Source: an uncultured Rickettsiales bacterium (GTDB taxonomy: Bacteria > Myxococcota_A > UBA796 > UBA9615). Taken from it: 64,000 nt of DNA. The number at the start of each line of letters is the position of its first letter. Position 1 is the first letter of the stretch. The position numbers and the translations under genes were made by a program. Below the pieces are notes generated by a model. The model was not told the origin of the DNA, did not search any database, and saw only the letters and a list, made by a program, of their open reading frames with translations. Location of the stretch: NCBI GenBank assembly GCA_964490445.1, contig CAZBDA010000010.1, positions 7,830-71,829 of the forward strand, read 5' to 3'. Shown here piece after piece: positions 17,489-64,000 of the stretch.

Positions 17489-18796
17489 TCAGAGAGATCG
17501 CAGGAACGCGATCAACCGGGAACGTTCCACTGCATTCAATTCCAGGCCCCAGGGGTGCCCTGGCTCCTCGCGGGAAGGGTCGAAGAGATCTTCGAGGCTG
17601 GAGACCGCACCGTGGTGGAAGTACGGTGCGGTCCGTCCGACCCCGCGCAGACTCGGGATCCGGTAGTAGCCGGTTGCGCGCACCGGGCTCTCGCCGGCTG
17701 CTGGGTCCGTTCCCAGGGTCTGTAGCGAGACCAGGGTGTCGGAGGTGAAGGTCGGCGCTGTGTGACAGGTGTTGCAGCCCTGTTGGTCGAAGATCAGCGC
17801 TCCGGCAGCGCTGTCCTCTGTGGCCTTGCTGTGGGGAGCTGGTGGGGGCAGCCCCCGCAGGTAGGCCGCGACTGCCCAGCTGAGGACTCGCGGGATGCGG
17901 AATCGCTCGCTACCCGCGGTGATGAAGAGCGTCTCGCAGCGGATCGCCAGGGTGACGGTGCCTCGATGGTGCCAGTTGGCGTTCTGTTGCAGGTAGGGCT
18001 GGTCGGCGATGCCTCCCATGTCGGGGATCGCGTACGGATTAAAGACATCGTCCAGCAGCAGGTCGACGCGGCCGGGTCCCAGGCGATGCAGGTCGGCGAT
18101 GGGGCTGTCCTCGTCCTCGGGAAGGGGCACGTCGGGGTCGTGGCCCAGCGCCAGCAGAAAGGCGCGGCCGATGTCCATCTGCTTGTTGGCAAGCGTCGCC
18201 GAAGCGAGCCCTTCATCGTCTCGGGAGAAGTGACATTGGCTACAGGCGGGCGCGACCCGCGCCGCACCGCTCTCGCTCTCGAAGACTCGTAGGCCCATCC
18301 ACCGGCCGTTGTCCTCGATGAAGCCAACCTCCGTCAGCGCGCCGGGCAAGCTGACGAGCGTCTCGTACAGGGGGTCCGGGCGCAGTGGATATTCCTCCAT
18401 GACCCGTCGTCCCAGGTCCTGCCAGCCGGCCTCGTTGTCGGGGAGTGTGGCGGGGGAGAGGCTGGTCATCTGATCGCGGTGCATCTCGAGGCCGAGGCCC
18501 TGCTGGAGCCTCTCGACGTCCTCTGAGGTCAGGGGGCGTGAGGGGAGGTCCCGTTCCGGCAGGTTGTCCCATCCGGCACCCTCGACAGCGTAGGAGCCGA
18601 GGCGACGTTCAGCGTAAAAGTTGTCGGTTGTGAGTAGATCTCGTTCGAGAATGGCGCGGCGGTACGTGCTATCGCCGATGTACAACTCGGCGCTGTCGGG
18701 CAGGGGGTCGGGCCCGGGGGCCGGACCGCAGCTGCTCGCTGCCAGGATCGGCAATAACAGCAGCAGCGCCAGGCGCGCGGCACGGGGGGGCGTCAT
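17489..18796 (-). CDS. Di-haem cytochrome c peroxidase / MauG-family lipoprotein
   Basis: Signal/lipobox [24 protein letters not shown]. Two CxxCH haem motifs (CSQCH, CNTCH) about 150 aa apart. Start ATG 18796 overlaps the upstream gene's TGA (ATGA). The table ORF to 18988 would run 190 nt into the upstream gene. Confidence 0.7.
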   Translation of the reverse strand: MTPPRAARLALLLLLPILAASSCGPAPGPDPLPDSAELYIGDSTYRRAILERDLLTTDNFYAERRLGSYAVEGAGWDNLPERDLPSRPLTSEDVERLQQGLGLEMHRDQMTSLSPATLPDNEAGWQDLGRRVMEEYPLRPDPLYETLVSLPGALTEVGFIEDNGRWMGLRVFESESGAARVAPACSQCHFSRDDEGLASATLANKQMDIGRAFLLALGHDPDVPLPEDEDSPIADLHRLGPGRVDLLLDDVFNPYAIPDMGGIADQPYLQQNANWHHRGTVTLAIRCETLFITAGSERFRIPRVLSWAVAAYLRGLPPPAPHSKATEDSAAGALIFDQQGCNTCHTAPTFTSDTLVSLQTLGTDPAAGESPVRATGYYRIPSLRGVGRTAPYFHHGAVSSLEDLFDPSREEPGHPWGLELNAVERSRLIAFLRSL

Positions 18797-21030
18797 CGCT
18801 GCCTCCGTCGACCGATGGGCAGGAGGACGAGCAGGGCTGCGCTGAAGCCGCTGCCCGAGCAGTCGTAGCTGAGCCCACAGCCGCCCTGGTAGCAGCCTGG
18901 CTGGAGAAGGTGGTAGGAGCCGTCGTCGGCGATTTCCTCGTCTCCGGCTTCCGGGCGGGGTCCACTGCCGTCGGGACAGCGGTAACACGGTGCGTTAGAG
19001 GCGTCGCAGTAGGTGTCAGTGTAGCCGTCGTCTTGGGGCAGCGCGGGCTGAATGGGCCAGGAGTCGTTGTCGCAGTCGACCAGGTCCGGGTAGCCGTCGC
19101 CGTCGCCCCGATCAGCGAAGACGTCATAGCTGAGACGCACTGACTGGCAGCTTCCGCCTGTTGCCCCGGGTGCCTGGCCAGACGCGGAGTCGAGCACGAA
19201 GAACTCCGTCTGCCAGGGCCAGGGTTGCCCCAGCGCGGCGATCAACTCAGCGCTCGGCAGCCAGTGGACCGCCTGGTCGATGGCGCAGGGCAGGTCCACC
19301 CACGGCAAGGCATCGCAGGCATCGGCTGCTGACGAAGGGCAGGTCTGTCGGAAGCGCTCACAGTCGTCCAGGTTGTCGACCTTCGCAGCCGGCAGGAAAC
19401 CAGCTTCTCCGAAGGTCGGTGATGGGCCGAGCAGGGAGCGTGTTGCGTCGCCGTCCTCGGCAAACCAGAGGACAGGACTCGGAGAGGCGTTCATCGTGGT
19501 CGTGATCGAGGCGGGAGCGTCGGCGAACAGCAGTAGGGGCTCTTTGGGCCTGGGCTCGGTAGAGGGAACGAACAGGTTCCGAGCGGCGATGAACTGGCTG
19601 CCCGGTTGTCCGCCTTCCATCAGAAGCAGACGCGCGCCGCCGTTGTCCGCGAAGGTGTTCTGCAGCAGTTGGATGTCGACGTCGCTTCTGGCCGTGTCCA
19701 GCCGGAGGATGGGGCCCTCGCCGATGCTGTTGCCCACCACGAAAGTGTGGCTCAGGCTCACTCCCACGCTGGTGGTCGAGTCGTTTGGAGGGAGGAAGTC
19801 GAACAGCACTCCGCTGGCGGCCTCAGCGGTCGCTGCGGGTGCCGGTCGGTGCGCGTAGGGCTCAAGTTGGTCTCGGCCCGCACAGGACGGCAGTCCCTCG
19901 CCTCCCTGTGCTCCCCACAGTGCCGACTGGGCGGGCTCAGGTTGTTCACCCAGCAAGGACAGCACGTGACGATTGCGTGACACCACCGAGTTGCTCAGCC
20001 AGTGCCCCATGACCGGCAACAGTTCGCCTTCGGGTCCGGTGTCGACCACCAGCGCGGGGAGCGGCGTGCGGACCAGGGGTACGCCGGTCGTGAGTACGTT
20101 GGCAGCCAGCAGCGACCGATCGATTCTCTTGATGGTGCCGACGAGTAGCGCGAGTTGGTCGTTCTCTGCACTGAGCCCGGTGCCGTCTACGAGGTTACCG
20201 AACACGACGCTACTGACCATGTCGAGGCCGCCCTCTCCGCCGGCGCGCAGCAACGCCAACCCGTCTGCGAGGCTGGCAGGACTGAAGTGGCATCCGACGA
20301 CTTCGCTACGCACCATGATCACCTCGGCGCCGGACTGCAGCGCCACACCCCGGCAGCCCACGATGTGGCTGTCGCGGAGGCTCAGGTGAATGGGCGAGCC
20401 GTCCAGGCCGCTGGCGATGGCGTAGCCCTGAGAGCCGATGATCTCGGTGTCCTCGATAACAAGACCCGTGCTGCCCGAGGCTTCGATGCCGGGTCCGGTG
20501 TGGGCACAGTCGCTCCCCTGGCGGAGGTCCATGCGTACGGCAATCCGGTCCTGGGTGAGGCCGAAGTCGTCGCCCGTCTGCCAGGAGATCAGGGGGCCGC
20601 CGGGATCGCTTCCGTCAGAGCACAGGGTCGTGTCGTCGGTCTCGAGAACCAGGCCGTTCGCGTAGTGGCCGAATTGCTGTTGCCGGACGCTGACCTGTTC
20701 GTGGTGGTAGCTAGGGCCAGTGACGCAGATCCTGGCCGTCGGGCGTAGGCCACTTGCCGTTTCGGGTAGCGCGGCAGTGGCCTCGAGGGCTGCGGCGATG
20801 GTCGGTAGCAGGCCCGCCGTCGGATCGCAGTCCTGGCCGCAGCCGGCTGTTACCGGGCTGCCGTCCGAGACCACGCACAGGTTGTGCTCCTGCCCCCGTG
20901 CTGCTGCGGGAAGACAGAGCAGCAGCGCAAGCGTGAGCAGCGCAGGTCCGGTGGGCTGTGAGGCTGTCGACAAGTGCTCCTGGCTCCCCTCGAATGCCAG
21001 AGTACCGCGTTCCTGCCAGCGAAGCGCCAT
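18793..21030 (-). CDS. Secreted right-handed parallel beta-helix repeat protein with MYXO-CTERM-type C-terminal sorting signal
   Basis: N-terminal signal ([18 protein letters not shown]). Gly/Ser/Asn-rich beta-helix-type repeats ([45 protein letters not shown]). C-terminus [34 protein letters not shown] is a Cys/Gly region, hydrophobic helix and Arg cluster. Start could be an internal TTG nearer the signal peptide. Confidence 0.6.
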
Positions 21031-21160
21031 GGCAGCTGCCCGGCGCTGCGGCCGGTCGATGTCTTGCCCCTCGTTGTCCCGCGGATTGCTCGAACAAAGC
21101 GCCCTGCTCGGCTCTCAGATGGCCGGCCTGTTCGTGCCCTGGAAGCCCTTCACGGTGGCT

Positions 21161-21198
21161 TTGAAACATCTCGTAACAAGGCGAAACACACCGGTTAC
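21161..21198 (+). promoter_or_regulatory. Conserved 38-nt element E1 ttgaaacatctcgtaacaaggcgaaacacaccggttac, 79 nt upstream of the TSP3/VWA lipoprotein gene
   Basis: 33/38 identical to the reverse complement of 27608..27645. Direct repeats TGAAACA/CGAAACA are 21 nt apart. Internal inverted repeat GTAAC...GTTAC. Confidence 0.45.
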
Positions 21199-21276
21199 AG
21201 CGATTGCGCGAAGTTGCTTGTCGACGAGGGAACCCACTCTCGATTGCAACCGGGTCGCAGCGATGCACCCAGAAAG

Positions 21277-23046
21277 ATGAATACGATGCTTACGACTCGA
21301 AAGACGACTTGGAGCTGTTTACTCATGGCTCTGGCTCTTACCGGCTGTGAACTGCTGCCGGGATCTTCCAGCGGAGATGCAGGGAGCGCCGGGAGCGACG
21401 GTAGCACCAGCGTAGAGGTGGACTGTGGTGATGACGACAGTGATTCCGGCACCGACGTGATCGACGAGGGGTCCGTGGACGACTCCGATTCCAGTTCCTC
21501 GGCTGATGATGATGATAGCGACCTCGACGAGGGCGGCTCTGAGGGTGATAGCGAGGACGAAGCCGACGAAGAGGATCCCGACACCGATACCGACGGTGAC
21601 GGCATCTCCGATGTCGTCGAGGGCGATGTCGACACCGATGGGGACGGTCACGAAGACTGGATGGACACCGACTCGGACAATGACGGCATCAGCGACGCGG
21701 ACGAAGGCACCATCGATACCGACGGCGACGGCGTCCCTGACTACGTCGACAGCGACTCGGACAACGACGGCATCAGCGACGCGGACGAAGGCGACGTCGA
21801 CAGTGACGGCGACGGCGACCCCGACTATGTCGATAGCGACTCCGACAATGATGGCTCCAGCGACCTGGTCGAAGAAGTCGTCGGAACTGACCCGACCGAC
21901 CCCACCGACAACCCCCCGGACAATGGCGACCAGGTCATCGATGTCACCTCTGAGACCACCGTCAGCACCGACCTCATTACCACCACGACCAACTACCAGC
22001 AGTTGGACGTCTGGTTCCTGATGGATCGGACCTGCTCGATGGGCCAGGAGATCCAGGCGATGGCCGGTGCCGTGGTCGACATCGTCGACTCCCTGACCTG
22101 CGAAGGCTCCGGTGAGAGTTGTGTCGAGGACGCCAGTTGTGAGACGGGCGAGGTGTGTGGTTGGCAAGACGAGTGCATCGAAGACCCCGCGCTCGTGGGT
22201 TGTGTGCCGAGCTTCTGGTCCGGTGCGGGCACCTACCAGGACGACGGCTATCCGATCACGAACCTGGCCTCGATGAGCAGCGACCCGTCACTGACGGCCA
22301 GCATGATCCCCACCTCGATTGCCGGTGGCTCGCAGGAGAACCTGTTCCAGGCAGCGGCCTGTGTGGCGAACCCGGCAGCTTGTGGCCCCGAGGTAACCCT
22401 GGACTGCGCCGCGTATGGAATCGGCTGCCCTGGCTACCGCAACGAGTCCGTGCGGGTGCTGGTGCAGATTACCGACGAAGACGACCAGTCCAGCCCCCAG
22501 AGCTACAATGCCGCCATGGCCGGTGCTGCGCTGCAGGCGCACAATATCGAGTACATCGGCATTGACTGCGACACCAACAGCATGGGCCTTGCCGACCTGC
22601 AGGCAGTTGCTACCGAAGCGGGCTCCCTCGACGCGAACGGCGCGCCGCTGGTGTTCTCGGGTGTCGGTACTGAGGTGGTACCTACTGTCACCCAGGCTAT
22701 CCAGACACTGGTCGAGGACGTACCCGTAGAGGTCACGGTGACCGCCACGGATCTGCCTGGCGATTCCGGGGACTCCCTGGTGTTCCTCGACTACCTCGAG
22801 GTGGTCAGCGGCGTACAGGGCTGCACGGCCTCTCCTTCGATAGACACTGATGGGGACGGCTTCGCCGAGACCTACACCAGCGTTCTGCCTGGTACGACCG
22901 TCTGTTGGAGTTTCAATGTCGACAACAGCACGGCAGTGACTCCTACCGACGAGGTGCAGACTTTCGACATGCTGCTGACGATCACGGGCAACAACGCCGT
23001 GCTCGATGAGTACACGGTCACCTTCGTGGTTGGTCCGGCAAGCTGA
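21277..23046 (+). CDS. Lipoprotein with thrombospondin type-3-like Ca-binding repeats and a C-terminal VWA-like domain
   Basis: Lipobox [10 protein letters not shown]. Asp-rich [22 protein letters not shown] repeats. VWA-like core [12 protein letters not shown] (MIDAS DxTxS), [21 protein letters not shown] with a Cys-rich insertion. Table ORF starts at 20974; ATG 21277 fits the signal peptide. Confidence 0.6.
21581..21866 (+). repeat. Intragenic tandem repeats (~84 nt, ~3.4 copies) encoding TSP3-like DxDxDGxxDxxE units
   Basis: Successive near-identical segments gacagcgactcggacaa(c/t)ga(c/t)ggcatcagcgacgcggacgaaggc... encode [15 protein letters not shown](T/D)(I/V)D(T/S)DGDG. Confidence 0.7.
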
Positions 23047-23182
23047 ATCCCAGGCGATTCAATCGAACGCAGAGGCACCCATGAGCCGGGGCCCCGGGAC
23101 ATCCCGGAGCCTCGGCTCTGTGCTTGGCTCGCCGTTGGCGAGCTGTTCGGTGGCGGTCGTCACGCCGGCGGCGGATTTCGTC

Positions 23183-26100
23183 TTAGGAATCGAGCAGTCG
23201 CAGTAGCAAGCGCAACTCCACCGACCTCTTGCTCAGTTGCTGTAGTTGCTCTGCCGTCAGCGAGTTGGCTACGGAGAATGCAGGGTCGAGTTGCTGTGCA
23301 ACGACCGTACACAAGGCCTGCTCGACCTCCCCCTGAGCTTCTGCGAGCTGACCTGCTTCTGTGAGGCTCTCCAGCGCTCCCCCTGGATCCGAGAGGCGCG
23401 CGCGTGTCACGGCAAGTACGCAAAGAGCCTGCAGGCGTGCCTGGATCTGAGTCTCTGCCGTCAGGACCTCCATTGCAGCAGCCAATTGTGCTGAGGCTTC
23501 TTCGGCTGCTCCCAGCTGCAGGTGCGCAACCGCAAGGCCAACCTGTGTAATTGCGCCTCCGACAGCCCATCCTGAAGCGGCCAGGCCCGCCCTCCCTGCT
23601 TCCAGGTGGCGGATCGCCCTGGGCGCATTGCCAAGGTCCAGGTGGATGCGGCCGAGGATCCCTTGTGTGTGCGCAGATGCCACCGCATCACCCAGCAGCA
23701 GCGCTCGACGAGTACTTTCCTCGACAAGACGCTCTGCCTCGTCATGGCGCCCGAGGATCAGCACCACCTCTGCGAGCAGGCCGAGGCAGGCATAGGTGCT
23801 TCGTGGGTTGTCGAAGGCCTCGTGGATCTCGATAGCTTCGCGTAGGAAGCCCTCGGCTTCCTGAGGCATTCCCAGGTTGCAGTGCAGCACTCCGAGCCTG
23901 CGCAGGCAGTTGCCTTTGCGCCTCTGTAGACCCGAGTCGCTGGCGATCTCGAGTGCATTGCGAGCGTGCTTCTCGGCTTCTTTCATTCGGCCCTGCCACT
24001 CCGCAAAGTGGCTCATGTGCTGGTGTGCCAGCAGTCGATCCAGGGGCCTTCCCTGCGTTCCCACGGTCAACAGTGCGGTGCGGACCTGCCCTTCCGCCTG
24101 GGTGATGTGTCCCATGGGAATGAGCAGGCCTCCTGCGCGGTACAGGGAAGCTCGGGCAAGGAGCAAGGGGCGTAGGGAGTCTCGGGCAAGGGACTCGAGC
24201 AACTCGATGTCGTGTTCGACTTCGGCGAGCATGCCCCCTACTCGTCTCCGCCACAGTGCCCGCGCATAGAGCAGGTCGATCTGAGTTTCTGGGTTCTGTC
24301 GGCCCGAGTGCTCGAGAACCGAGTTCAAGAGCCGGTCATAGACGCCGGGGGGGCCACGTTCTTGCAGGATCGGCTCCAGCACGAGGGCGATGCGCACGGC
24401 GACATCACTTTCCCGCAAGGAGCACTCGCTTTCGATCTTCAGCAGGTTGTCGATCTCGAGTTCCAACAGGCGAGTGGCTTGGAGGCCCCTGCTGCCATCC
24501 CGCGAAGCAGCCAGTCGTTCTGCTTCGACCAGGTAGTAGTCCCTGTGTCGCTGTTTCAGCGCCCCCAGGCTGGTGAGCTCCGCGAGGTGTTCTGATGCGA
24601 AGAGATAGATGCTTTCGAAGAATGTGAAGCGTCGTAGACCCGTGACGCCGGGGACCTCGACACAGCGCAGCAGCGACTTGTCGACAAGGCCCTGGAGCAG
24701 ATCGAGGACCAGCGCGTCGCCGTGCGGAAATTCGATGACGGCCTCGGCCGCTTCAGCAGAAAAGCCGCCGGAGAAGATGGTCGTTTGTGCCAGCACGTGC
24801 TTCTCCTCGACACGGAGAAGCTGCCAGGACCATTCAATGGCACCGCGAAGGGTGGTGGTGCGGTCCTTGTCGCTGGCTCGGTTGGCGCGGAGCAGTTCGA
24901 AACGCTGCGTCAGGCGCTGGCGGAGTTGTTGGGTGGACAACATTCGGATCCGTGCTGCAGCCAACTCGACTGCAAGGGGGATCCGGTCCAGTTCTTTGAC
25001 GACGGTTCGGATGTCGTCCATGCCCTGCTCGTCGGGCTGGAAGTCGTAGCGAAGCTCTCGCGCGCGTTCCATGAACAGTGCGACGGCCGGCTCCTCGTCC
25101 AGGGGCGCCAGTTCGTAGACCCTCTCGCCGGGTACGTTGAGCAGCGCCTGGGAAGTCACCAGGAAGCGGGCACCTGGCGCAGCTTGGAGCCATGCAGCGA
25201 CCACTTCGCCCGAGGACTCCACCAACTGCTCGAAGTTGTCCAGCAGGACGAGGCAGGGCCCTCGGTTGGCCAACTCGTCGCTGATGGCTTCGACGTCGTC
25301 ATCCGCGGTGGTGCTGGCCATCGCGATGCCGAGTCCCGCCGCGACTGCCCTGATCATGCCCTCCTTGTCACGGGCTGCCTGGAGGTCGCAGAACCACGAG
25401 GAGGCCTCGCCCAGTAGTGTAGGTGCCCGCTGTTCGGCGAAGACCCGCGCCAGCAGGGTCTTGCCCATGCCGCCGGGCCCGGTGAGCGTGACGAGTCGGG
25501 CCCCTGTCTCGAACAACTCCTGTAGAGCCGCCAGAGAACGCTCCCGGCCCTGGACAACGCGGCCATCGAGGGTGATGACCGAAAGCTCCTGGGTGGAATC
25601 CCCGCCGGTCGCAAGGCTCGCTGCGGGGGCCTCGGGAACGGCTGGGCTCGGAGCCACGGGCGGCTCCTCGTCGGATGGCGGCTCGAAGCGGTAGCCCTGG
25701 CCATGCACTGTCAGAATGAAGCGAGGCTCTGCCGGGTTGGGCTCGATCTTCTTGCGGAGCCGCCGAACCGCGACATCGACAGCCCGGGTTACGACTCGCC
25801 CGCGGATTCCCCAGACGTCCCGCATCAGTTGATCTCTGGTGATCACGCGCCCGGGGTTGGTGGCCAGGTATCTCAGCAGGCTGGCTTCGTTGGTAGTGAG
25901 GCCTTCGTGCTGCTCTCCCAGGTGCACCTCTTCTCTCGCGAGATCTACCTGGCAGTGGCCCAGGTCCAGCGTTTCCAGGGGAACGCGATTAATGGAGCTG
26001 CCGCCGAGCCGGTCCAGGGCATCGAGCAGCTCGCCACAGGATCCCAGGCGCTCCTGTTCGTTGGTCTTTCCCATCTGCCGCAACAGGTCTACGAGGCCAG

Positions 26101-26908
26101 CGGGTGCGCCCGCTTCTTCCAGCGCTGCTGGACTTGCCTGGCGTGCCCGCACCTCTCGACCCAGCAGCAGGGCCTCTCCGATGCGTGCCAACGAGTAGAT
26201 GTCGTCGTGAACGGTGCTTTGCAGCCTGTCGCTTTTCGTATTGGGAGCCAGGTAGGGCAGGTCCTCTTCAGCGATGGGCTCGGCGAGGGCTCCCAGCCGA
26301 CCAAAATCGAGCAGCTTCACGTCGTCCCGCTCGGTAATGAAGATGACCGACGGCTCCAGCAGACCGTGGCTGAGTCCCATTCCGTGCGCGTGCCCCAGTG
26401 CTTCCGCGAGGGTGCGGAAGATGCGTAGCACCCGGCGTACGCTGAGGATCTCGCTGCTGTCTGCGAGTCGTTCTCTGAGGCTGCGTCCCTGGACCAAATC
26501 GACGACCAGCGCGCACAGCTCGCCGTCTTCTATGAAGTCCAGGACGCGAACGATGTGCGGATGCCGCAGGCGGGCCAGCAGAGCTGCTTCCCGTCGCAAC
26601 TCCTCGCGAACCTCGTCGAGGTGGGTGAGGTGAGGATGGAGCACCTTGACGGCGGCTTGTAGGCCGGAAACGAATCGGTGCGTGCCCCGATAGACAGTGG
26701 TACGGGAGCCCACGCCGAGGACTTCTGAGAGTTCATATCCGCCGATTTGCTGTACCACTGTCAAACAGATAGCACGACATGCTGCCGCGGCACGATCCAC
26801 GGGAGCAGACAGCCGCATCTTGCCTGCGCCAAGTAGAGACGCCCGAATCGCGTGCGACTCGGGCGTCCCGCAAGGGGGGCGTTGCTCCAGCGGAGCTGCT
26901 GCTAGCAA
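23183..26908 (-). CDS. STAND-class regulator: degenerate Ser/Thr kinase (pseudokinase) domain + OmpR/PhoB-type winged-helix DNA-binding domain + NB-ARC P-loop NTPase + TPR repeats
   Basis: Kinase fold markers are present (G-loop GVGSRTT, AVKVL Lys, alphaC Glu, DFG in KLLDFG). The catalytic loop reads HGLLEPSV instead of HRDLKPEN, and APE becomes APN. Winged helix: EASLLRYLATNPGRVITRDQLMRDVWG...RAVDVAVRRLRKKIEPNP...ILTVHGQGYRF. NB-ARC: Walker A LTGPGGMGKT, Walker B LVLLDNFE, sensor-I-like FLVTSQ, GLPLA-like RIPLAVEL. TPR-like helical repeats follow to the C-terminus. Alternative start ATG 26821. Confidence 0.75.
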   Translation of the reverse strand: MLAAAPLEQRPPCGTPESHAIRASLLGAGKMRLSAPVDRAAAACRAICLTVVQQIGGYELSEVLGVGSRTTVYRGTHRFVSGLQAAVKVLHPHLTHLDEVREELRREAALLARLRHPHIVRVLDFIEDGELCALVVDLVQGRSLRERLADSSEILSVRRVLRIFRTLAEALGHAHGMGLSHGLLEPSVIFITERDDVKLLDFGRLGALAEPIAEEDLPYLAPNTKSDRLQSTVHDDIYSLARIGEALLLGREVRARQASPAALEEAGAPAGLVDLLRQMGKTNEQERLGSCGELLDALDRLGGSSINRVPLETLDLGHCQVDLAREEVHLGEQHEGLTTNEASLLRYLATNPGRVITRDQLMRDVWGIRGRVVTRAVDVAVRRLRKKIEPNPAEPRFILTVHGQGYRFEPPSDEEPPVAPSPAVPEAPAASLATGGDSTQELSVITLDGRVVQGRERSLAALQELFETGARLVTLTGPGGMGKTLLARVFAEQRAPTLLGEASSWFCDLQAARDKEGMIRAVAAGLGIAMASTTADDDVEAISDELANRGPCLVLLDNFEQLVESSGEVVAAWLQAAPGARFLVTSQALLNVPGERVYELAPLDEEPAVALFMERARELRYDFQPDEQGMDDIRTVVKELDRIPLAVELAAARIRMLSTQQLRQRLTQRFELLRANRASDKDRTTTLRGAIEWSWQLLRVEEKHVLAQTTIFSGGFSAEAAEAVIEFPHGDALVLDLLQGLVDKSLLRCVEVPGVTGLRRFTFFESIYLFASEHLAELTSLGALKQRHRDYYLVEAERLAASRDGSRGLQATRLLELEIDNLLKIESECSLRESDVAVRIALVLEPILQERGPPGVYDRLLNSVLEHSGRQNPETQIDLLYARALWRRRVGGMLAEVEHDIELLESLARDSLRPLLLARASLYRAGGLLIPMGHITQAEGQVRTALLTVGTQGRPLDRLLAHQHMSHFAEWQGRMKEAEKHARNALEIASDSGLQRRKGNCLRRLGVLHCNLGMPQEAEGFLREAIEIHEAFDNPRSTYACLGLLAEVVLILGRHDEAERLVEESTRRALLLGDAVASAHTQGILGRIHLDLGNAPRAIRHLEAGRAGLAASGWAVGGAITQVGLAVAHLQLGAAEEASAQLAAAMEVLTAETQIQARLQALCVLAVTRARLSDPGGALESLTEAGQLAEAQGEVEQALCTVVAQQLDPAFSVANSLTAEQLQQLSKRSVELRLLLRLLDS

Positions 26909-27513
26909 TCCCAGGTGACGGTAACCTGCTCGACTTCGCCGTCGCCGTTGAAGGTTGCCGAGACGTCGATGCAGCGAGCAAGGAAGCCGGCGATTGCCCA
27001 GGCAAGCGGGTGGCCTGCAGGCTCATCGCCCCACACCACGCCGCTGATCTCGAGGAACTCGACCAGAAGTAGGGGATTGGTGACTGCCGTTATTGCCGAG
27101 GAATAGTCGACAAGGGAGGTGACCAGCGCATCCTCGCGGGTCTGTTCGACGAGACCCTGATCGTCGAATACCACCAAGCCCGCGCTCGTTCCGGCATAGC
27201 CGACGATAAAGTTGCCGCGAGCGTCGTATACCGACAGCGAGCCGGCATGGGAGTCTCCCTCCAGTTCGACGATGAAGATCTCGTTGTCCGCGAGGATTGC
27301 GAAGCTGTCGGCAGCCTCGGGTTCGCGGTGATACCAGGCGAGTTGCAGGTTCACTTCGGGAGTCGTGGAGGTATTCTCGGGACGCTCGCTTGTTGCATTT
27401 CGGTCGTCTTGCTCGGGTGCCTGGCTCCTGGGTGTGGCGCCGGCAACAGAGAGCAGGCCACCGAGAATGAAGGTGGGGATTAGGGTAAGAATCGTCAGGG
27501 CCTTCGAGTTCAT
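26902..27513 (-). CDS. Secreted hypothetical protein (signal peptide), unknown function
   Basis: MNSKALTILTLIPTFILGGLLSVAGA signal peptide. No recognisable domain. Its stop lies about 1 nt before the STAND gene ATG, so they are probably co-transcribed. The conserved 38-nt element lies about 95 nt upstream. Confidence 0.45.
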   Translation of the reverse strand: MNSKALTILTLIPTFILGGLLSVAGATPRSQAPEQDDRNATSERPENTSTTPEVNLQLAWYHREPEAADSFAILADNEIFIVELEGDSHAGSLSVYDARGNFIVGYAGTSAGLVVFDDQGLVEQTREDALVTSLVDYSSAITAVTNPLLLVEFLEISGVVWGDEPAGHPLAWAIAGFLARCIDVSATFNGDGEVEQVTVTWDC

Positions 27514-27607
27514 CTTGTTCTCCTTGCCTTGAGTGCTGAGTCTCAGGGTCAGTTGTCGTTTTGGTCGTGGCCACTGCCATCGACTCCCGGAGCATTACCC
27601 ACGAGGA

Positions 27608-27645
27608 GTAACCAGGGTGTTTCGCCTTGTTACCGGGTGTTTCAA
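27608..27645 (-). promoter_or_regulatory. Conserved 38-nt element E2 (minus-strand ttgaaacacccggtaacaaggcgaaacaccctggttac), ~95 nt upstream of the secreted-protein/STAND-regulator operon
   Basis: Same orientation and similar distance to its downstream gene as E1. Out-of-frame table ORFs 20974..(+) and 27023..27802(-) share E-T-x-x-NKAKH-x-GYS, translated from this motif. Confidence 0.45.
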
Positions 27646-27689
27646 TGAGAGACTGCTCTACAAGGAACCATCCACAGAAGGACTTGCCG

Positions 27690-28148
27690 ATGGCAGGGGA
27701 ACGCAAGATCTGGGTCGATGCTGATGCCACTCCCCGTCCCGTGAAAGAGGTTCTCTTCCGGGCCGCCGAGCGTCGGGGCGTCGCTGTACTGCTTGTGGCC
27801 AATCGCTGGTTTCCGCATCCTCGGCACGCATTGGTCGGCTTCGTGCAGGTCGAGCAGGGACCCGACGAAGCTGACCACTACATCGCCGAGCATGCCGGGC
27901 CAGGTGACCTGGTAGTGACTGCCGACATTCCTCTCGCAGCCCGCGTGATTGCCAGTGGCGTAGCTGTCATTCAGCCGCACGGACGCGAACTCGACGCCGA
28001 AAGTATCGACGAAGCCCTGGCGCTGCGAGATTTCAAGGAGGCTTTGCGCGACTCAGGCACGATGACCGGTGGCCCGCCGCCGTTCAGCGCGAAGCACAAG
28101 CAGCGCTTCTCGAATGCATTGGACCGCTGGGTCAGCGCTCGTCGCTAG
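27690..28148 (+). CDS. YaiI/YqgE-like UPF0178 (DUF188) protein
   Basis: KIWVDADATPRPVKEVLFRAAERRGVAVLLVAN matches the KIWVDADACP...VKE start of the YaiI family from memory. ATG 27690 was chosen within the longer table ORF. Confidence 0.7.
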   Translation: MAGERKIWVDADATPRPVKEVLFRAAERRGVAVLLVANRWFPHPRHALVGFVQVEQGPDEADHYIAEHAGPGDLVVTADIPLAARVIASGVAVIQPHGRELDAESIDEALALRDFKEALRDSGTMTGGPPPFSAKHKQRFSNALDRWVSARR

Positions 28149-28197
28149 GCAGAGGACGTCTTGTTCGGAACCCGCCGGATGCCTTGACGGTGCGCCG

Positions 28198-29514
28198 CTA
28201 CAGGTTTGTTGAGGTGATATGCCAGGTGAGCACGTCGCCCTCGATGGCTCCGATGTCCTCAGGTTCGAGCATTGCTCGCTGAGTGTTCCAGCGGTAGCGA
28301 CGCAGCACCTTCTCCCGGTCGGACACTACATACAGCTCCGGCCTCCCATCTCCGTCGAGGTCGGCAGCGGTTGCGGCGTGCTCGTAGCCGCCCGAGTTGC
28401 TACCGAAGCCTCGCTGTTGCCACTGCTCGCCGTCTTCGCTGTCGAGCAGGAACAGTCCGATATTCATGGTGGTTGCGACCAGTTCGCGGCGTCCATCGCC
28501 GTCGAAGTCTGCGGCCAGCAAGACTCGGCACTGCCGGTCGGGGAACTCGGCGATGGTGTCGTGCCGGAAGTTGCCATCTGGCATCAAGCGGTGACGGCGA
28601 ATGGTCACCGGGCCCGTAGGCTTGCCTTCTTCATCGAGGGGTGCCTCCCAGACGCTGAACAGGCTGGCCTTCTGCTCGTCACCGAGAGGTGTTGCGAGGA
28701 TCTCCTTGGCGTGGGTGTCCTCGCGGCTCTCGACCACGGTTCGTCCGAAGCGCCCGTCCTGGTACCGGTACATGACGACGGCACCGGCCTGGGACTGGCC
28801 GAGACGGTTGCGAGCTGAGGGCGTGGCGAAGAACTCGACCCGTCCGTCTCCGTCGATGTCGCCGACTTCGATCTCGTGCACGAAGGTGCCGGGTGTGGAG
28901 TCGAGTTCGACGACTGAAGGATCCTGGCCCGGCCTGCTCTGCTCCAGTACGGCGATGACTCCCTGGTCGTGGGTGGCGAGGATGAACTCGTCTTCGCCGT
29001 CGTGGTCGACGTCGGCCTGTTCGAGGTCCCGTAGACGGTTGAACCTGCCGTCCCAGCGTCCCTCCCAGAGCGTTTCGTGCTGCCAGTTACCCGAGCGGAC
29101 CGTCCACCTGCGGAGCAGTGCCCTGCTGCCGCCCAGGGTGACCAGCGAGTCGCCCAGCGCGTGGCTGCCGTGGAACACATCGGAGTCGGGGTCGTCGAGC
29201 TGGTAGCTTTGCCAGCGGCCGTTCTCATCTCGCCAGATGGACAGGCGCGCCGGGCCGGCTGTGGTCTCTTTGCCCGTGCGCGTGAACACCGACTGGCTGA
29301 GGATGAGGGTCGGCCGGGCCCCGCCCTGGGGCGGAGCGGCCGACACGGCTGGGGCTGTCGGGTCCTGGTCGGCAGGAGCAGGACTGGGTTCCGACGGGAC
29401 AGTTGCATCTCGGCAGCCGGTCAGAGCGGTGACCACGGCGAGCAGAGCGACCAGTAGCAGTCGATCGTTGCACCGACTGCGCGCCTTGCTGTCCTGCCCG
29501 TTGGTTTCAGTCAC
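28198..29514 (-). CDS. Lipoprotein with FG-GAP/VCBS-like repeats (DxDGDG Ca-binding loops)
   Basis: Lipobox LLAVVTALTGC. Repeated ADFDGDGRRE, GDIDGDGRVE, ADLDGDGRPE, VDHDGEDE loops spaced about 50-60 aa apart. Confidence 0.6.
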   Translation of the reverse strand: MTETNGQDSKARSRCNDRLLLVALLAVVTALTGCRDATVPSEPSPAPADQDPTAPAVSAAPPQGGARPTLILSQSVFTRTGKETTAGPARLSIWRDENGRWQSYQLDDPDSDVFHGSHALGDSLVTLGGSRALLRRWTVRSGNWQHETLWEGRWDGRFNRLRDLEQADVDHDGEDEFILATHDQGVIAVLEQSRPGQDPSVVELDSTPGTFVHEIEVGDIDGDGRVEFFATPSARNRLGQSQAGAVVMYRYQDGRFGRTVVESREDTHAKEILATPLGDEQKASLFSVWEAPLDEEGKPTGPVTIRRHRLMPDGNFRHDTIAEFPDRQCRVLLAADFDGDGRRELVATTMNIGLFLLDSEDGEQWQQRGFGSNSGGYEHAATAADLDGDGRPELYVVSDREKVLRRYRWNTQRAMLEPEDIGAIEGDVLTWHITSTNL

Positions 29515-35510: not shown

Positions 35511-36209
35511 TCAGTCGACCAGGTCGAGGACGTAGTCAATGTCGAACGGCCACAGGTCGTCATTGACGACATTCATCTCACGGTCGATGACTACATAGGT
35601 TGGAAAGCCGGTGACGACGTAGTCACCCTGGCTCAGGTTGGTATCGGCAGTTACCGGGTGCTCGAGACCGTACTCGTCGGCCCAGTCGTTGATGTCCGAG
35701 TTTGTCGGAGGGTCGCTGGCAAGGTTCTGTTGCATTGCCGCCAACATGATGACTTCCCCTTCGCCTCGTTCCCACAACTCCTGTCCGTGCGGCGCATTCG
35801 CCTGGCATGGACCGCACCACTGCGCGAACACGTCGAGGACCAGGACCTTGCCGTAGAATTGGTAGATGTCGAGTTCGTCTCCGTGCTGGTCGAGCAGGGT
35901 GGCATCGTGGGCGATGTCGCCGGTGCGATATCCGCTGCCTTCGAGGTCGTCCGGGACGGCGCAGGGCACTGCCTGCCACCAGGTGTTTTCGGGCCAGACG
36001 CGTGTCGTCAGGCCGTTGTCGACGCCCCCTACACAGTCGTTGTCGATGCCGTCGCAGATCTCGTCTGCCTCGGGGTTGATGTCTGCGTTGGAGTCATCGC
36101 AGTCGTCGCTCCGGTAGCCGAAGCCGTCGCCGTCTTCGTCGACCATGCAGCCGCCGAAGGCCAGCGACAGGGCGAGCAGGATCACGACGCTCAGGGGTTG
36201 ACTACGCAT
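35511..36209 (-). CDS. Lipoprotein: MopE-like Cys/Asp metal-binding motif fused to TlpA/ResA-like thioredoxin domain
   Basis: Lipobox ALSLAFGGC. DEDGDGFGYRSDDCDDSNADINPEADEICDGIDNDCVGGVDNG motif. Thioredoxin active site AQWCGPCQ. TlpA-like fold (YGKVLVLDVFAQWCGPC...GFPTYVVID). Confidence 0.7.
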   Translation of the reverse strand: MRSQPLSVVILLALSLAFGGCMVDEDGDGFGYRSDDCDDSNADINPEADEICDGIDNDCVGGVDNGLTTRVWPENTWWQAVPCAVPDDLEGSGYRTGDIAHDATLLDQHGDELDIYQFYGKVLVLDVFAQWCGPCQANAPHGQELWERGEGEVIMLAAMQQNLASDPPTNSDINDWADEYGLEHPVTADTNLSQGDYVVTGFPTYVVIDREMNVVNDDLWPFDIDYVLDLVD

Positions 36210-62076: not shown

Positions 62077-64000
62077 CTAGCGGAAGACGTACTCCGCGTA
62101 GCCATCAGCGTTGTTGATCCCTGGCGCCGTGGCCTGATCGCTGTCCATACCATCGTAGTACGACGATCCGCCGCCGGCGGGTGCATTCGAGATGCTGCCG
62201 GCGCCGCCTCCGTACCAGCCGCCTCCGCCACCTCCCTCGTCGTTGTCCTGGACGTTGTTGCCGCCGGCTCCGAACGAGCCATTTGCGGAAGAGGTGTTCG
62301 TGGTTGTTCCGCCTGCGGTCTGGCTGCCTCCAAAGCCTCGACCGCTGGGACTTCCAGAAGTACTTCCATCGCCGCCGTTGAGGCCACCGCCAGCTCCGCC
62401 AGGGGAATTACAGCTCGCGTTTCCGCAGCCGCCTCCACCTCCGGCCACCAGGATCCTGGAGTTCAGGTCTCCCAGAGTGGTGCGAAGGTCAGTGCCTCCT
62501 CCCCCGCCGGAGCCGCCGCGTGTGCCACGGCCTCCTCCATTGAAGCCGCCGCTCTGGGTGTTGGGAGGACCCTGATCTTCTACTCCGCCCGCATCGCCCT
62601 GGCCGCCGACGTACAGGTGCAACGTAGTCTCCGGGGGGAAGGTCCTGGCGCCGCTGGCGCGGCCTCCGAGGCCGCCATTGGTGTTGATTCCGGTACCGCC
62701 GGCTGCACCGTGCAGTGTGAACAGGTACTCAGCGGTGCTGTTGACCGTCGAAAAGCTGTGCTCGCTGCCGGTGTGTTCCACGCGGAATGGACTGGCCACG
62801 GACTGGTAGGTCCAGCCTCCACCCGTCATGTCACAGAACACCTGGAAGGCGTTATTGGTGTCGCCGTCGTCGTCAGTGTCGATCCAATAGGTTCCGTCTC
62901 CCGAACCGGGGAACTGCGCCAGGATTGTGCCGCAGGTGATGCCGGCATTGGCCTGGCTGATGCCGTCGCGACAGTTGGCAAAGCAGCTGGGGTCGAGGTC
63001 GTTGCCATCGGTACCGCCGCTGAGCTCTGCCGCCGAGTCGTGTCCGTCGCCGGCCTGGTCGAAGTCGCGGGCTCCGCTGCAGTCCAGGTCGATGCCGTCG
63101 TACCAGATCTCCACTGCGCCGGGATTGATGGCCGTGTCGTTGTCGTTGCAGTCGCCGGAATTGTTGATGAAGCCGGTGGTTGCGCTGCAGGCTGCGATGG
63201 AGTTGCCCAGGTCGCCGAAGCCGTCGCCGTCGCTATCGGCGTAGAAAGTGGTGGCATTGATCGCGCCCTCGTCGACGGAGCTGTCACAGTCGTTGTCTTC
63301 GCCGTCGCAGACTTCCAGTGCGCCGGGGTTCTCGGTGGGGTCGGCGCCATCGCAGTCGTTGCCGTTGGCGCTGTAGCCGGTTGGTTGGAAGCAGGCTGCC
63401 TGGGGGGTGCCGGGGTCTCCGTAGCCATCGCCGTCGCCGTCGAGGAAGAAGGTGGTCGAGACACCCTCGTCGACCTGGCCGTTGCAGTCGTTGTCGGCGT
63501 CGTCGCAGACCTCGGTGCCGCCGGGGAAGGCGGTCGCGTGGAGGGCGTGGCACTGCCGTGCGTGGAAGATGTAGCCGGGCGGCGGCGTGCAGGCCAGCTG
63601 ACTGCCCACCGGGCTGCCGAAGCCGTCGCCGTCGAAGTCGGCGAACCAGTTGGTGGGTGCCGCGCTGCCTTCGTCGACGCTGCCGTCGCAGTTGTTGTCG
63701 GCTTCATCACAGATCTCGGGTGCGCCCGGGTAGGCACTTGGATTCAGGTCGTCGCAGTCATCGTCGGTTACGACGTAGCCCAGCGGCTGGCTGCAGGCCG
63801 GCAGGATCGGCTGCGTGCGCCCGTAGCCGTCGCCGTCGGCATCGAAGTACCAGTTGGTCTCGCCGGTGGCACCGCTCTCGTCGACCTGCCCGTCGCAGTC
63901 ATTGTCGAGCCCGTCGCAGGTCTCAAGCGCAGCAGTGTTGAGGGCTGAGTTGTTGTCGTCGCAGTCCTCGCAGGCGGCGAGACCGTCGCCGTCGACGTCC
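62077..64000 (-). CDS. Secreted protein with tandem MopE-like 'putative metal-binding motif' repeats and Gly-rich C-terminal region; 5' end lies beyond window
   Basis: The minus-strand frame stays open from 64000 down past the table start at 63609. At least five ~55-aa repeats of [CDxxDNDCDGxVDEG...FYxDxDGDGYG...C]. C-terminus GGGGGTDL...GGGGGCGNASC. Confidence 0.55.
   Translation of the reverse strand, partial: DVDGDGLAACEDCDDNNSALNTAALETCDGLDNDCDGQVDESGATGETNWYFDADGDGYGRTQPILPACSQPLGYVVTDDDCDDLNPSAYPGAPEICDEADNNCDGSVDEGSAAPTNWFADFDGDGFGSPVGSQLACTPPPGYIFHARQCHALHATAFPGGTEVCDDADNDCNGQVDEGVSTTFFLDGDGDGYGDPGTPQAACFQPTGYSANGNDCDGADPTENPGALEVCDGEDNDCDSSVDEGAINATTFYADSDGDGFGDLGNSIAACSATTGFINNSGDCNDNDTAINPGAVEIWYDGIDLDCSGARDFDQAGDGHDSAAELSGGTDGNDLDPSCFANCRDGISQANAGITCGTILAQFPGSGDGTYWIDTDDDGDTNNAFQVFCDMTGGGWTYQSVASPFRVEHTGSEHSFSTVNSTAEYLFTLHGAAGGTGINTNGGLGGRASGARTFPPETTLHLYVGGQGDAGGVEDQGPPNTQSGGFNGGGRGTRGGSGGGGGTDLRTTLGDLNSRILVAGGGGGCGNASCNSPGGAGGGLNGGDGSTSGSPSGRGFGGSQTAGGTTTNTSSANGSFGAGGNNVQDNDEGGGGGGWYGGGAGSISNAPAGGGSSYYDGMDSDQATAPGINNADGYAEYVFR

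Follow-up and report, generated by a model that had tools for sequence, protein, structure and literature searches.

What are two nearly identical short elements doing on either side of a regulator gene, each of them in front of a gene for an exported protein? The question is raised by a 64,000-nt stretch of contig CAZBDA010000010.1 (positions 7,830–71,829; this whole stretch of analysed DNA is called the window below), in which a 38-nt motif occurs as E1 (TTGAAACATCTCGTAACAAGGCGAAACACACCGGTTAC, 21161–21198, plus strand) and as E2 (TTGAAACACCCGGTAACAAGGCGAAACACCCTGGTTAC, 27608–27645, minus strand), with the gene of a large STAND ATPase regulator lying between them (23183–26758, minus strand). 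An earlier interpretation made from the letters of the window (the sequence-only reading) had taken the pair for a candidate shared operator of the adjacent regulator, which would control a small regulon and, through an operon headed by E2, also itself. Comparison with related loci supports the shared operator and the small regulon, while autoregulation and the operon have become doubtful. E1 and E2 are most likely binding sites of the neighbouring regulator, because a common module containing them sits beside every relative of the regulator that was found. With moderate confidence, we read them as upstream activator sites in a conserved promoter module that spans ~65 nt and is present twice, and which would be bound by the winged helix-turn-helix (wHTH) domain of the regulator.

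The sequence bears out the coordinates of the pair and its identity of 33/38, as well as the claim that each copy lies upstream of, and is co-oriented with, its gene. The 3′ end of E1 is 78 nt from the ATG (21277) of a lipoprotein gene, that of E2 is 94 nt from the ATG (27513) of a gene encoding a 203-aa protein, and both copies point toward their downstream gene. Pairwise alignment of the two window copies confined their likeness to ~40 nt. A degenerate motif search of the 64 kb allowing ≤3 mismatches returned two copies, E1 and E2, with 0 expected from 100 shuffles, and each orthologous contig held one copy. The scattered generic repeat, which the sequence-only reading had named as the observation that would speak against it, was therefore not what we saw, and the pattern of a dispersed repeat resembling repetitive extragenic palindromes (REP) or miniature inverted-repeat transposable elements (MITE) was absent from the 64-kb window and the orthologous contigs.

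The core of the motif consists of three direct heptamers TG(A/T)AACA in exact 10-bp phase (positions 3, 13, and 23). A fourth element, GTT(A/T)C, is weaker and stands at position 34, 11 bp after repeat 3. Three repeats are counted because (C/G)GTAACA sits exactly midway between TGAAACA and CGAAACA. This corrects the geometry of two direct repeats that had been proposed: the outer heptamers are 20 bp apart and not 21 bp, and what had been described as a GTAAC/GTTAC inverted repeat is made up of the middle direct repeat and the partly conserved fourth element. In E1 (plus strand), the proposed wHTH half-sites are TGAAACA at 21162–21168, CGTAACA at 21172–21178, and CGAAACA at 21182–21188, all kept in the metagenome locus L080, with the fourth element GTTAC, conserved in part of the family, at 21194–21198. 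In E2 (minus strand), the corresponding proposed half-sites, again in 10-bp phase, are TGAAACA at 27644–27638, GGTAACA at 27634–27628, and CGAAACA at 27624–27618, with GTTAC at 27608–27612.

Alignment of 11 module copies from nine lineages (alignment A2, to which all column numbers refer) showed that the conserved unit spans ~65 nt and is thus larger than the 38-nt motif. All 11 copies have three G(A/T)AACA repeats with a spacing of exactly 10 bp, with TG-AACA invariant in repeat 1, G-AACA in repeat 2, and G-A-C in repeat 3; the other invariant positions are the G of the fourth element, A71, T75, and G82/C84/G85 of a GTCGA box. Positions 2 and 6 are the most conserved in the −10 box of sigma-70 promoters, and these are the places that A71 and T75 take in a −10-like hexamer NAnnnT that lies 21 bp 3′ of repeat 3 (variants AATGCT, AATTCT, AATTAT, CACTCT, GAAGTT, and GAGATT). 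No TTGACA-like −35 was seen at columns 46–53 in any copy, and a standard sigma-70 scan of 20800–28200 found no promoter, which is consistent with an activator-dependent promoter. If the start is placed at the GTCGA box, the repeats would be centred near −57, −47, and −37, a layout that would predict an activator-dependent (class II-like) promoter. The hexamer is GAAGTT (21210–21215) for E1 and AATGCT (27596–27591, minus strand) for E2, and the GTCGA boxes at 21220–21224 and 27584–27580 place the predicted starts at ~21220–21223 and ~27584, respectively.

A hairpin begins at the GTCGA box in most copies, with the register of its 3′ arm shifting between lineages (E1: 21220–21245, plus strand). 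It is weakly supported in E2 (GTCGATGGCAGTGGCCACGAC, 27584–27564, minus strand; z −2.0) and weakly better than shuffles across the copies (z from +0.3 to −2.7); it could be a 5′-terminal stem-loop of the mRNA. At the other end of the module, an AGAGCAG box (27653–27659, minus strand; columns 7–13) lies ~10 nt 5′ of repeat 1; every E2-type copy has it, including those of L022 and L040, in which the box is part of an upstream coding region, whereas neither the E1-type copies nor those of L026 and L028 do. When the ~850 kb of DNA fetched were scanned with a 72-nt profile built from the module, the true copies scored 52–69 bits and everything else ≤24 bits. No third copy was found in the window, where the next match to this profile scored 9.9 bits (E = 0.55). 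A sigma-54 reading of the GTCGATGGCA box was also considered and ruled out by eye, as it has no TTGC at −12 spacing.

Module and regulator are linked through the orthologues of the latter. The orthologue set has nine members (P0001–P0009, 41–100% identity); the contigs of the eight beyond the window (P0002–P0009, 41–73%) were fetched, and a module copy was found beside 9/9 regulator genes, within ~350 nt of the gene, so that module and regulator family strictly co-occur; the comparative conservation for which the sequence-only reading had called is thus present. One of the eight comes from a metagenome-assembled genome (MAG) labelled Deltaproteobacteria. At 9/9 orthologue loci, the module faces a small gene encoding a signal-peptide protein. 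In seven lineages (the window, L020, L025, L022, L040/L117, L023, and L029), it lies ~90–95 nt 5′ of an orthologous ~200-aa gene, and this gene precedes the regulator; ahead of that small gene, the E2 core is accordingly kept in L020, L022, L023, L025, L029, L040, and L117. In L028, the module lies 2 nt past the regulator stop codon and before a different small signal-peptide gene, and in L026, a variant module is found upstream of a divergent homologue of the L028 small gene. The other neighbours differ, and the regulator is the only DNA-binding gene kept beside the module in nine lineages. No module was found beside P0013, a more distant, kinase-less wHTH-STAND-TPR homologue whose recognition helix reads VDSAV vs VDVAV.

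The E1 type of module has a relative in L080, a metagenome locus in which it precedes an 88%-identical orthologue of the lipoprotein; no regulator gene was detected on this 8-kb contig. The homology between E1 and L080 starts exactly at repeat 1 and continues at ~87% to the ATG, with unrelated sequence upstream. In wider scans, the metagenome search returned 84 loci, mostly tandem arrays or unrelated families, among which the only true relatives were L040, L060, L080, and L111, and a scan of the genome collection with GAAACAN4GTAACAN3CGAAACA gave 15 matches, all chance hits or 10-bp tandem arrays and none with the module. As a side observation, the module in L022 (1621–3350), L040, and L117 lies directly 3′ of a co-directional MbnB_TglH_ChrH (DUF692) gene and its partner gene, the TGA stop of which supplies the first bases of repeat 1.

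The regulator itself is 1191 aa long from the GTG at 26758, the start chosen by the gene finder, within an open reading frame (ORF) of 23183–26908 (minus strand). Pfam matches give the domain order kinase-like, OmpR/PhoB-type wHTH, STAND ATPase, and TPR repeats. The wHTH and STAND domains had been recognised in the sequence-only reading, which missed the N-terminal kinase-like domain of ~250 aa; the wHTH takes up about residues 255–365. That the adjacent regulator carries an OmpR/PhoB-type winged helix is confirmed by its Trans_reg_C match (PF00486, E = 2.2e-25) and by the best PDB sequence matches of the domain, which are MtrA (1e-17), RstA, PhoB, and OmpR (7e-14); matches to AAA_22, AAA_16, NACHT, NB-ARC, and TPR_12 lie C-terminal to it. 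In an alignment of seven regulator orthologues (A5), neither the recognition helix RAVDVAVRRLRxK nor the wing ILTVHGxGYR varies over a range of 41–100% overall identity, and the Walker A motif GPGGMGKT is invariant too. The kinase domain matches with E = 3e-22, over profile positions 1–198 of 263 only. Its VAVK Lys and DFG are kept in A5, and the catalytic loop reads H-G-x-L-x-P-S/A/H-x, not HRDLKPxN, in 7/7 orthologues. Because the catalytic Asp and Asn are missing from this loop, the domain is probably a pseudokinase serving in sensing or scaffolding.

Membership in the established families was checked domain by domain. With no Pfam match to the receiver domain PF00072 (Response_reg), the regulator falls outside the two-component response regulators; with no BTAD (PF03704) at E ≤ 0.01 in the regulator, nor among the precomputed domains of P0001–P0009, it falls outside the SARP family; and with no Pfam match to the LuxR-type (GerE) helix-turn-helix (HTH) PF00196, it falls outside the LAL/MalT family, although many of its more distant homologues do carry a LuxR-type HTH. 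The predicted combination of pseudokinase, response-regulator-type wHTH, STAND, and TPR was not found described in the literature searched.

By kind, the element is ordinary: phased direct-repeat operators of wHTH-ATPase activators are well known, as for PimR, AfsR, OmpR, and MalT. AfsR, a Streptomyces SARP with an NB-ARC ATPase and TPR repeats, binds direct repeats at its target promoter; it contains a BTAD but no in-built kinase domain, being phosphorylated by the separate kinase AfsK. The regulator here differs from it in its fused kinase-like domain lacking the catalytic Asp and Asn, and both join a wHTH, a STAND ATPase, and TPR repeats in one polypeptide (for the domain order of AfsR, PMC5930380). 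PimR of Streptomyces natalensis (SARP-LAL) recognises three heptameric direct repeats at its neighbouring target pimM, and its secondary operator is built of 10-bp units (PMC5930380). It shares with the present system a wHTH fused to a large ATPase and a short-spaced heptamer operator kept across orthologous clusters (PMC5930380). PimR nevertheless has a SARP N-terminus (wHTH + BTAD), a main period of 11 bp, and the heptamer CGGCAAG, and is actinobacterial, whereas the regulator here has no BTAD, a response-regulator-type wHTH, TG(A/T)AACA at 10 bp, and an N-terminal kinase-like domain; the 11-bp heptamer periodicity typical of SARPs is not found in the module, which keeps to 10 bp.

OmpR/PhoB domains bind head-to-tail on tandem direct repeats, and ArcA often has sites made of three repeats (PMC4173790). 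A close likeness in half-site and spacing is seen with OmpR at E. coli ompC/ompF: its half-site is similar, its repeat unit likewise measures 10 bp, and it binds with a domain of the same family (E = 7e-14). The decamer TGAAACATCT, which is also E1 repeat 1, occurs twice upstream of E. coli ompC (verified in 5,372 genomes), and predicted OmpR boxes include GTAACAAGTTGTAACAGGTG (PMC9861516). OmpR, unlike the one-component STAND regulator here, which has no receiver domain, is a two-component regulator with such a domain. MalT multimerises in dependence on inducer and ATP, binds cooperatively to repeated boxes, and recruits RNA polymerase (PMC4381067); it differs in its C-terminal LuxR-type HTH and its box sequence, where the present regulator has an internal wHTH of the OmpR type. 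In its proposed working, the system resembles PimR, OmpR, and MalT, and it belongs to none of the SARP, LAL/MalT, and two-component families.

By analogy with MalT, AfsR, and PimR, the regulator would multimerise once it has bound ATP and its TPR and/or kinase-like domains have sensed a signal, after which its wHTH domains would bind the repeats head-to-tail. The bound multimer would then recruit RNA polymerase to a promoter that has no −35 hexamer, and as a result the gene of the 203-aa secreted protein and that of the TSP3 lipoprotein would be switched on. Several points weigh against this picture. The odd number of strong half-sites is a poor fit to a simple dimer; the −10-like hexamers match TATAAT weakly, at 3–4/6 positions, and both they and the putative start sites are assigned from conservation; and L023 and L029 lack the fourth element. 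The conserved target is a class of genes and not one orthologue, because no homology to the 203-aa family could be demonstrated for the small proteins of L026 and L028 (hhalign probability 3%), which an exhaustive profile search did not recover either. Finally, the source genome, that of a marine metagenome lineage, lies outside the genome and metagenome collections scanned, and the count of two copies applies to the window.

The regulatory consequence could also be the opposite one. The same regulator may bind as a repressor or dual regulator, or the promoter may lie elsewhere so that binding blocks RNA polymerase, an alternative that we regard as improbable but the least so among those considered. 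OmpR/PhoB-family repression through three direct repeats is known from ArcA at icdA (PMC4173790), the start site here is a predicted one, and both window modules lie in divergent intergenic regions, E2 beginning 44 nt from the start codon of a DUF188 gene and E1 131 nt from that of a gene for a 745-aa protein. The repeats are nonetheless upstream of, and not over, the sole conserved −10-like element, which has no −35, as is typical of activator-dependent promoters, and the divergent neighbours are not kept in other loci; we infer activation over repression. A little less probable still is that the repeats are bound by some other protein whose gene lies elsewhere, for instance an OmpR-family response regulator of a two-component system, with the adjacency of the STAND regulator reflecting co-regulation of the locus. 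G(A/T)AACA at 10-bp phase makes generic OmpR-like half-sites, such arrays also occur in unrelated lineages, and the window is only part of the source genome. Set against this are the standing of the STAND regulator as the sole DNA-binding gene kept beside the module in nine lineages while other neighbours differ, the invariance of its wHTH helix while the whole protein falls to 41% identity, and the finding of no second Trans_reg_C either among the called genes, which cover ~6–53.5 kb of the window, or among the long ORFs that were scanned at both ends. Binding by the neighbouring regulator remains the reading that we prefer over such an outside binder.

Both alternatives offered by the sequence-only reading itself, a promoter of an extracytoplasmic function (ECF) sigma factor and an RNA element in the 5′-untranslated region, are disfavoured, and we hold each to be very unlikely. 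ECF promoters take the form GGAAC-N16/17-GTT, and some of their −35 boxes are near TGAAAC. GTAAC-N16-GTT in both E1 and E2, together with TGAAAC, could therefore suggest a −35 of GAAAC/GTAAC with CGT/GTT downstream as the −10. The would-be −10 is, however, not conserved (L029 and L023 have GGC/GCC in place of GTT), the positions 16–17 nt after repeat 2 or repeat 3 vary freely, and a sigma −35 does not need three phased invariant copies; no gene with Sigma70_r2/r4, as in an ECF sigma factor, was found among the annotated genes of the window or the orthologous loci. Lacking a conserved −10 and a nearby sigma gene, the ECF promoter was rejected. A structured 5′-leader RNA, riboswitch-like or protein-binding, in place of a DNA operator could account for the conservation between E1 and L080 from the repeats to the start codon, the hairpin after the GTCGA box in most copies, and a 7-bp stem that is possible around GTAAC in L020 and L022. 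The RNAalifold consensus, however, gave −0.53 kcal/mol with a covariation term of +0.45, its only base pairs over the repeats being those of the invariant GTAAC/GTTAC; single-sequence folds were no better than shuffles (E2 z −0.23, L023 z +0.34); and Rfam had no match for the motif region at the gathering threshold. In the window, the distance between E2 repeat 1 and the divergent start codon is only 44 nt, in which a promoter farther upstream would hardly fit. With Rfam, RNAalifold, and single-sequence folds all negative over the repeats, the RNA element was rejected as well.

If the two elements are activator sites of the STAND regulator, a regulator of unusual architecture gains a concrete DNA target, three 10-bp-phased TG(A/T)AACA half-sites, and a minimal regulon of two members is defined in uncultured marine bacteria, comprising a rare secreted protein and a TSP3 lipoprotein. 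This opens the question of how a STAND multimer places OmpR-type domains on an odd number of repeats and of what the fused, probable pseudokinase contributes. A joint reading that we put forward as speculative, and as less probable than its opposite, is that these proteins form an undescribed family of kinase-like/wHTH/STAND/TPR one-component, signal-integrating activators in uncultured marine bacteria annotated as Deltaproteobacteria, each tied to a portable ~65-nt cassette (three phased half-sites, −10, and GTCGA start + hairpin) set before unrelated secreted-protein genes, with the WDC protein encoded downstream of E2 being an obligate partner of the regulator that might act as a feedback signal or as an extracytoplasmic co-sensor. 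We consider the locus to be of moderate interest, both for the way in which the regulator is built and for the close association of the module with a secreted family that is very rare.

The two candidate target genes differ in what can be said of their products. The lipoprotein gene downstream of E1 (21277–23046, plus strand) encodes a lipobox LALTG|C and an acidic TSP3-repeat region (Pfam TSP3_bac); the VWA domain attributed to it earlier was not recovered, as Pfam gives the TSP3 repeat only. The gene downstream of E2 (26902–27513, minus strand) encodes a 203-aa protein with a signal peptide and a C-terminal WDC that matches no Pfam family. The family of this protein is rare, with 18 cluster representatives in 1.84 billion, and its members have in common an LSLYD-xG-xIVGY core and the C-terminal WDC. 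Its AlphaFold model is mostly beta-strand and poor (confidence score pLDDT 44), and hence unusable for a fold search.

The 203-aa gene had been taken to head the regulator operon. A GC-rich, terminator-like hairpin lies between the two genes (26836–26869, minus strand; −29.1 kcal/mol, z −4.1). Such hairpins are present in all seven E2-type loci with differing stem sequences (z from −3.6 to −5.0); 0/60 shuffles were as stable, and several hairpins are followed by T-rich tails. Beyond it, a −10-like TGCTAT (family T(A/G)NTAT) is found 10 nt 5′ of the conserved regulator GTG, in the region 26759–26790 (minus strand), which suggests that the regulator is near-leaderless and separately transcribed. 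The small gene is thus probably transcribed as a unit by itself, and the regulator probably from a promoter of its own. Because the terminator-like hairpin and the separate −10-like element intervene, both the operon and autoregulation are doubtful, and autoregulation through E2 would need read-through.

Both window modules lie within divergent intergenic regions. Opposite E1, the divergent gene encodes the 745-aa protein, which has no Pfam match, and is followed by that of a RoxA-like cytochrome c (17489–21030, minus strand). Proteins with the copper-binding MopE motif recur in the window (35511–36209 and 62077–63609, both minus strand) and near L020, L022, and L026. These neighbours hint that copper or redox is a theme in the surroundings of the regulators.

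The scans also met other elements. In the Micropepsaceae MAG DALYLR01, which accounts for seven of the 15 genome-collection matches, seven arrays of CGTAACA/CGAAACA in 10-bp phase (L003, L004, L007–L010, and L015), several with the common flank gccaaaaaaggaacgtaaca, resemble the termini of a mobile element present in several copies and are unrelated to the module. A high-GC element, TGAAACAatATGTAACAnnnTGAAAC ... gatacgacgatgaaagca ... gggctgtcaat, occurs in L001, L056, L059, L063, L086, and L091 (GC 0.65–0.71; one contig labelled Actinomycetota); this 'TGAAACAatATGTAACA' family has no consistent downstream gene, one copy standing before a LacI-type regulator gene. The same triple-repeat geometry is found in a near-identical stretch, caatgtaacacgaaTGAAACAGCTTGTAACAATCTGAAACagatttgtagcgtagag, shared by ~12 contigs of GC ~0.44 (L032, L033, L039, L043, L047, L067, L075–L077, L094, and L109).

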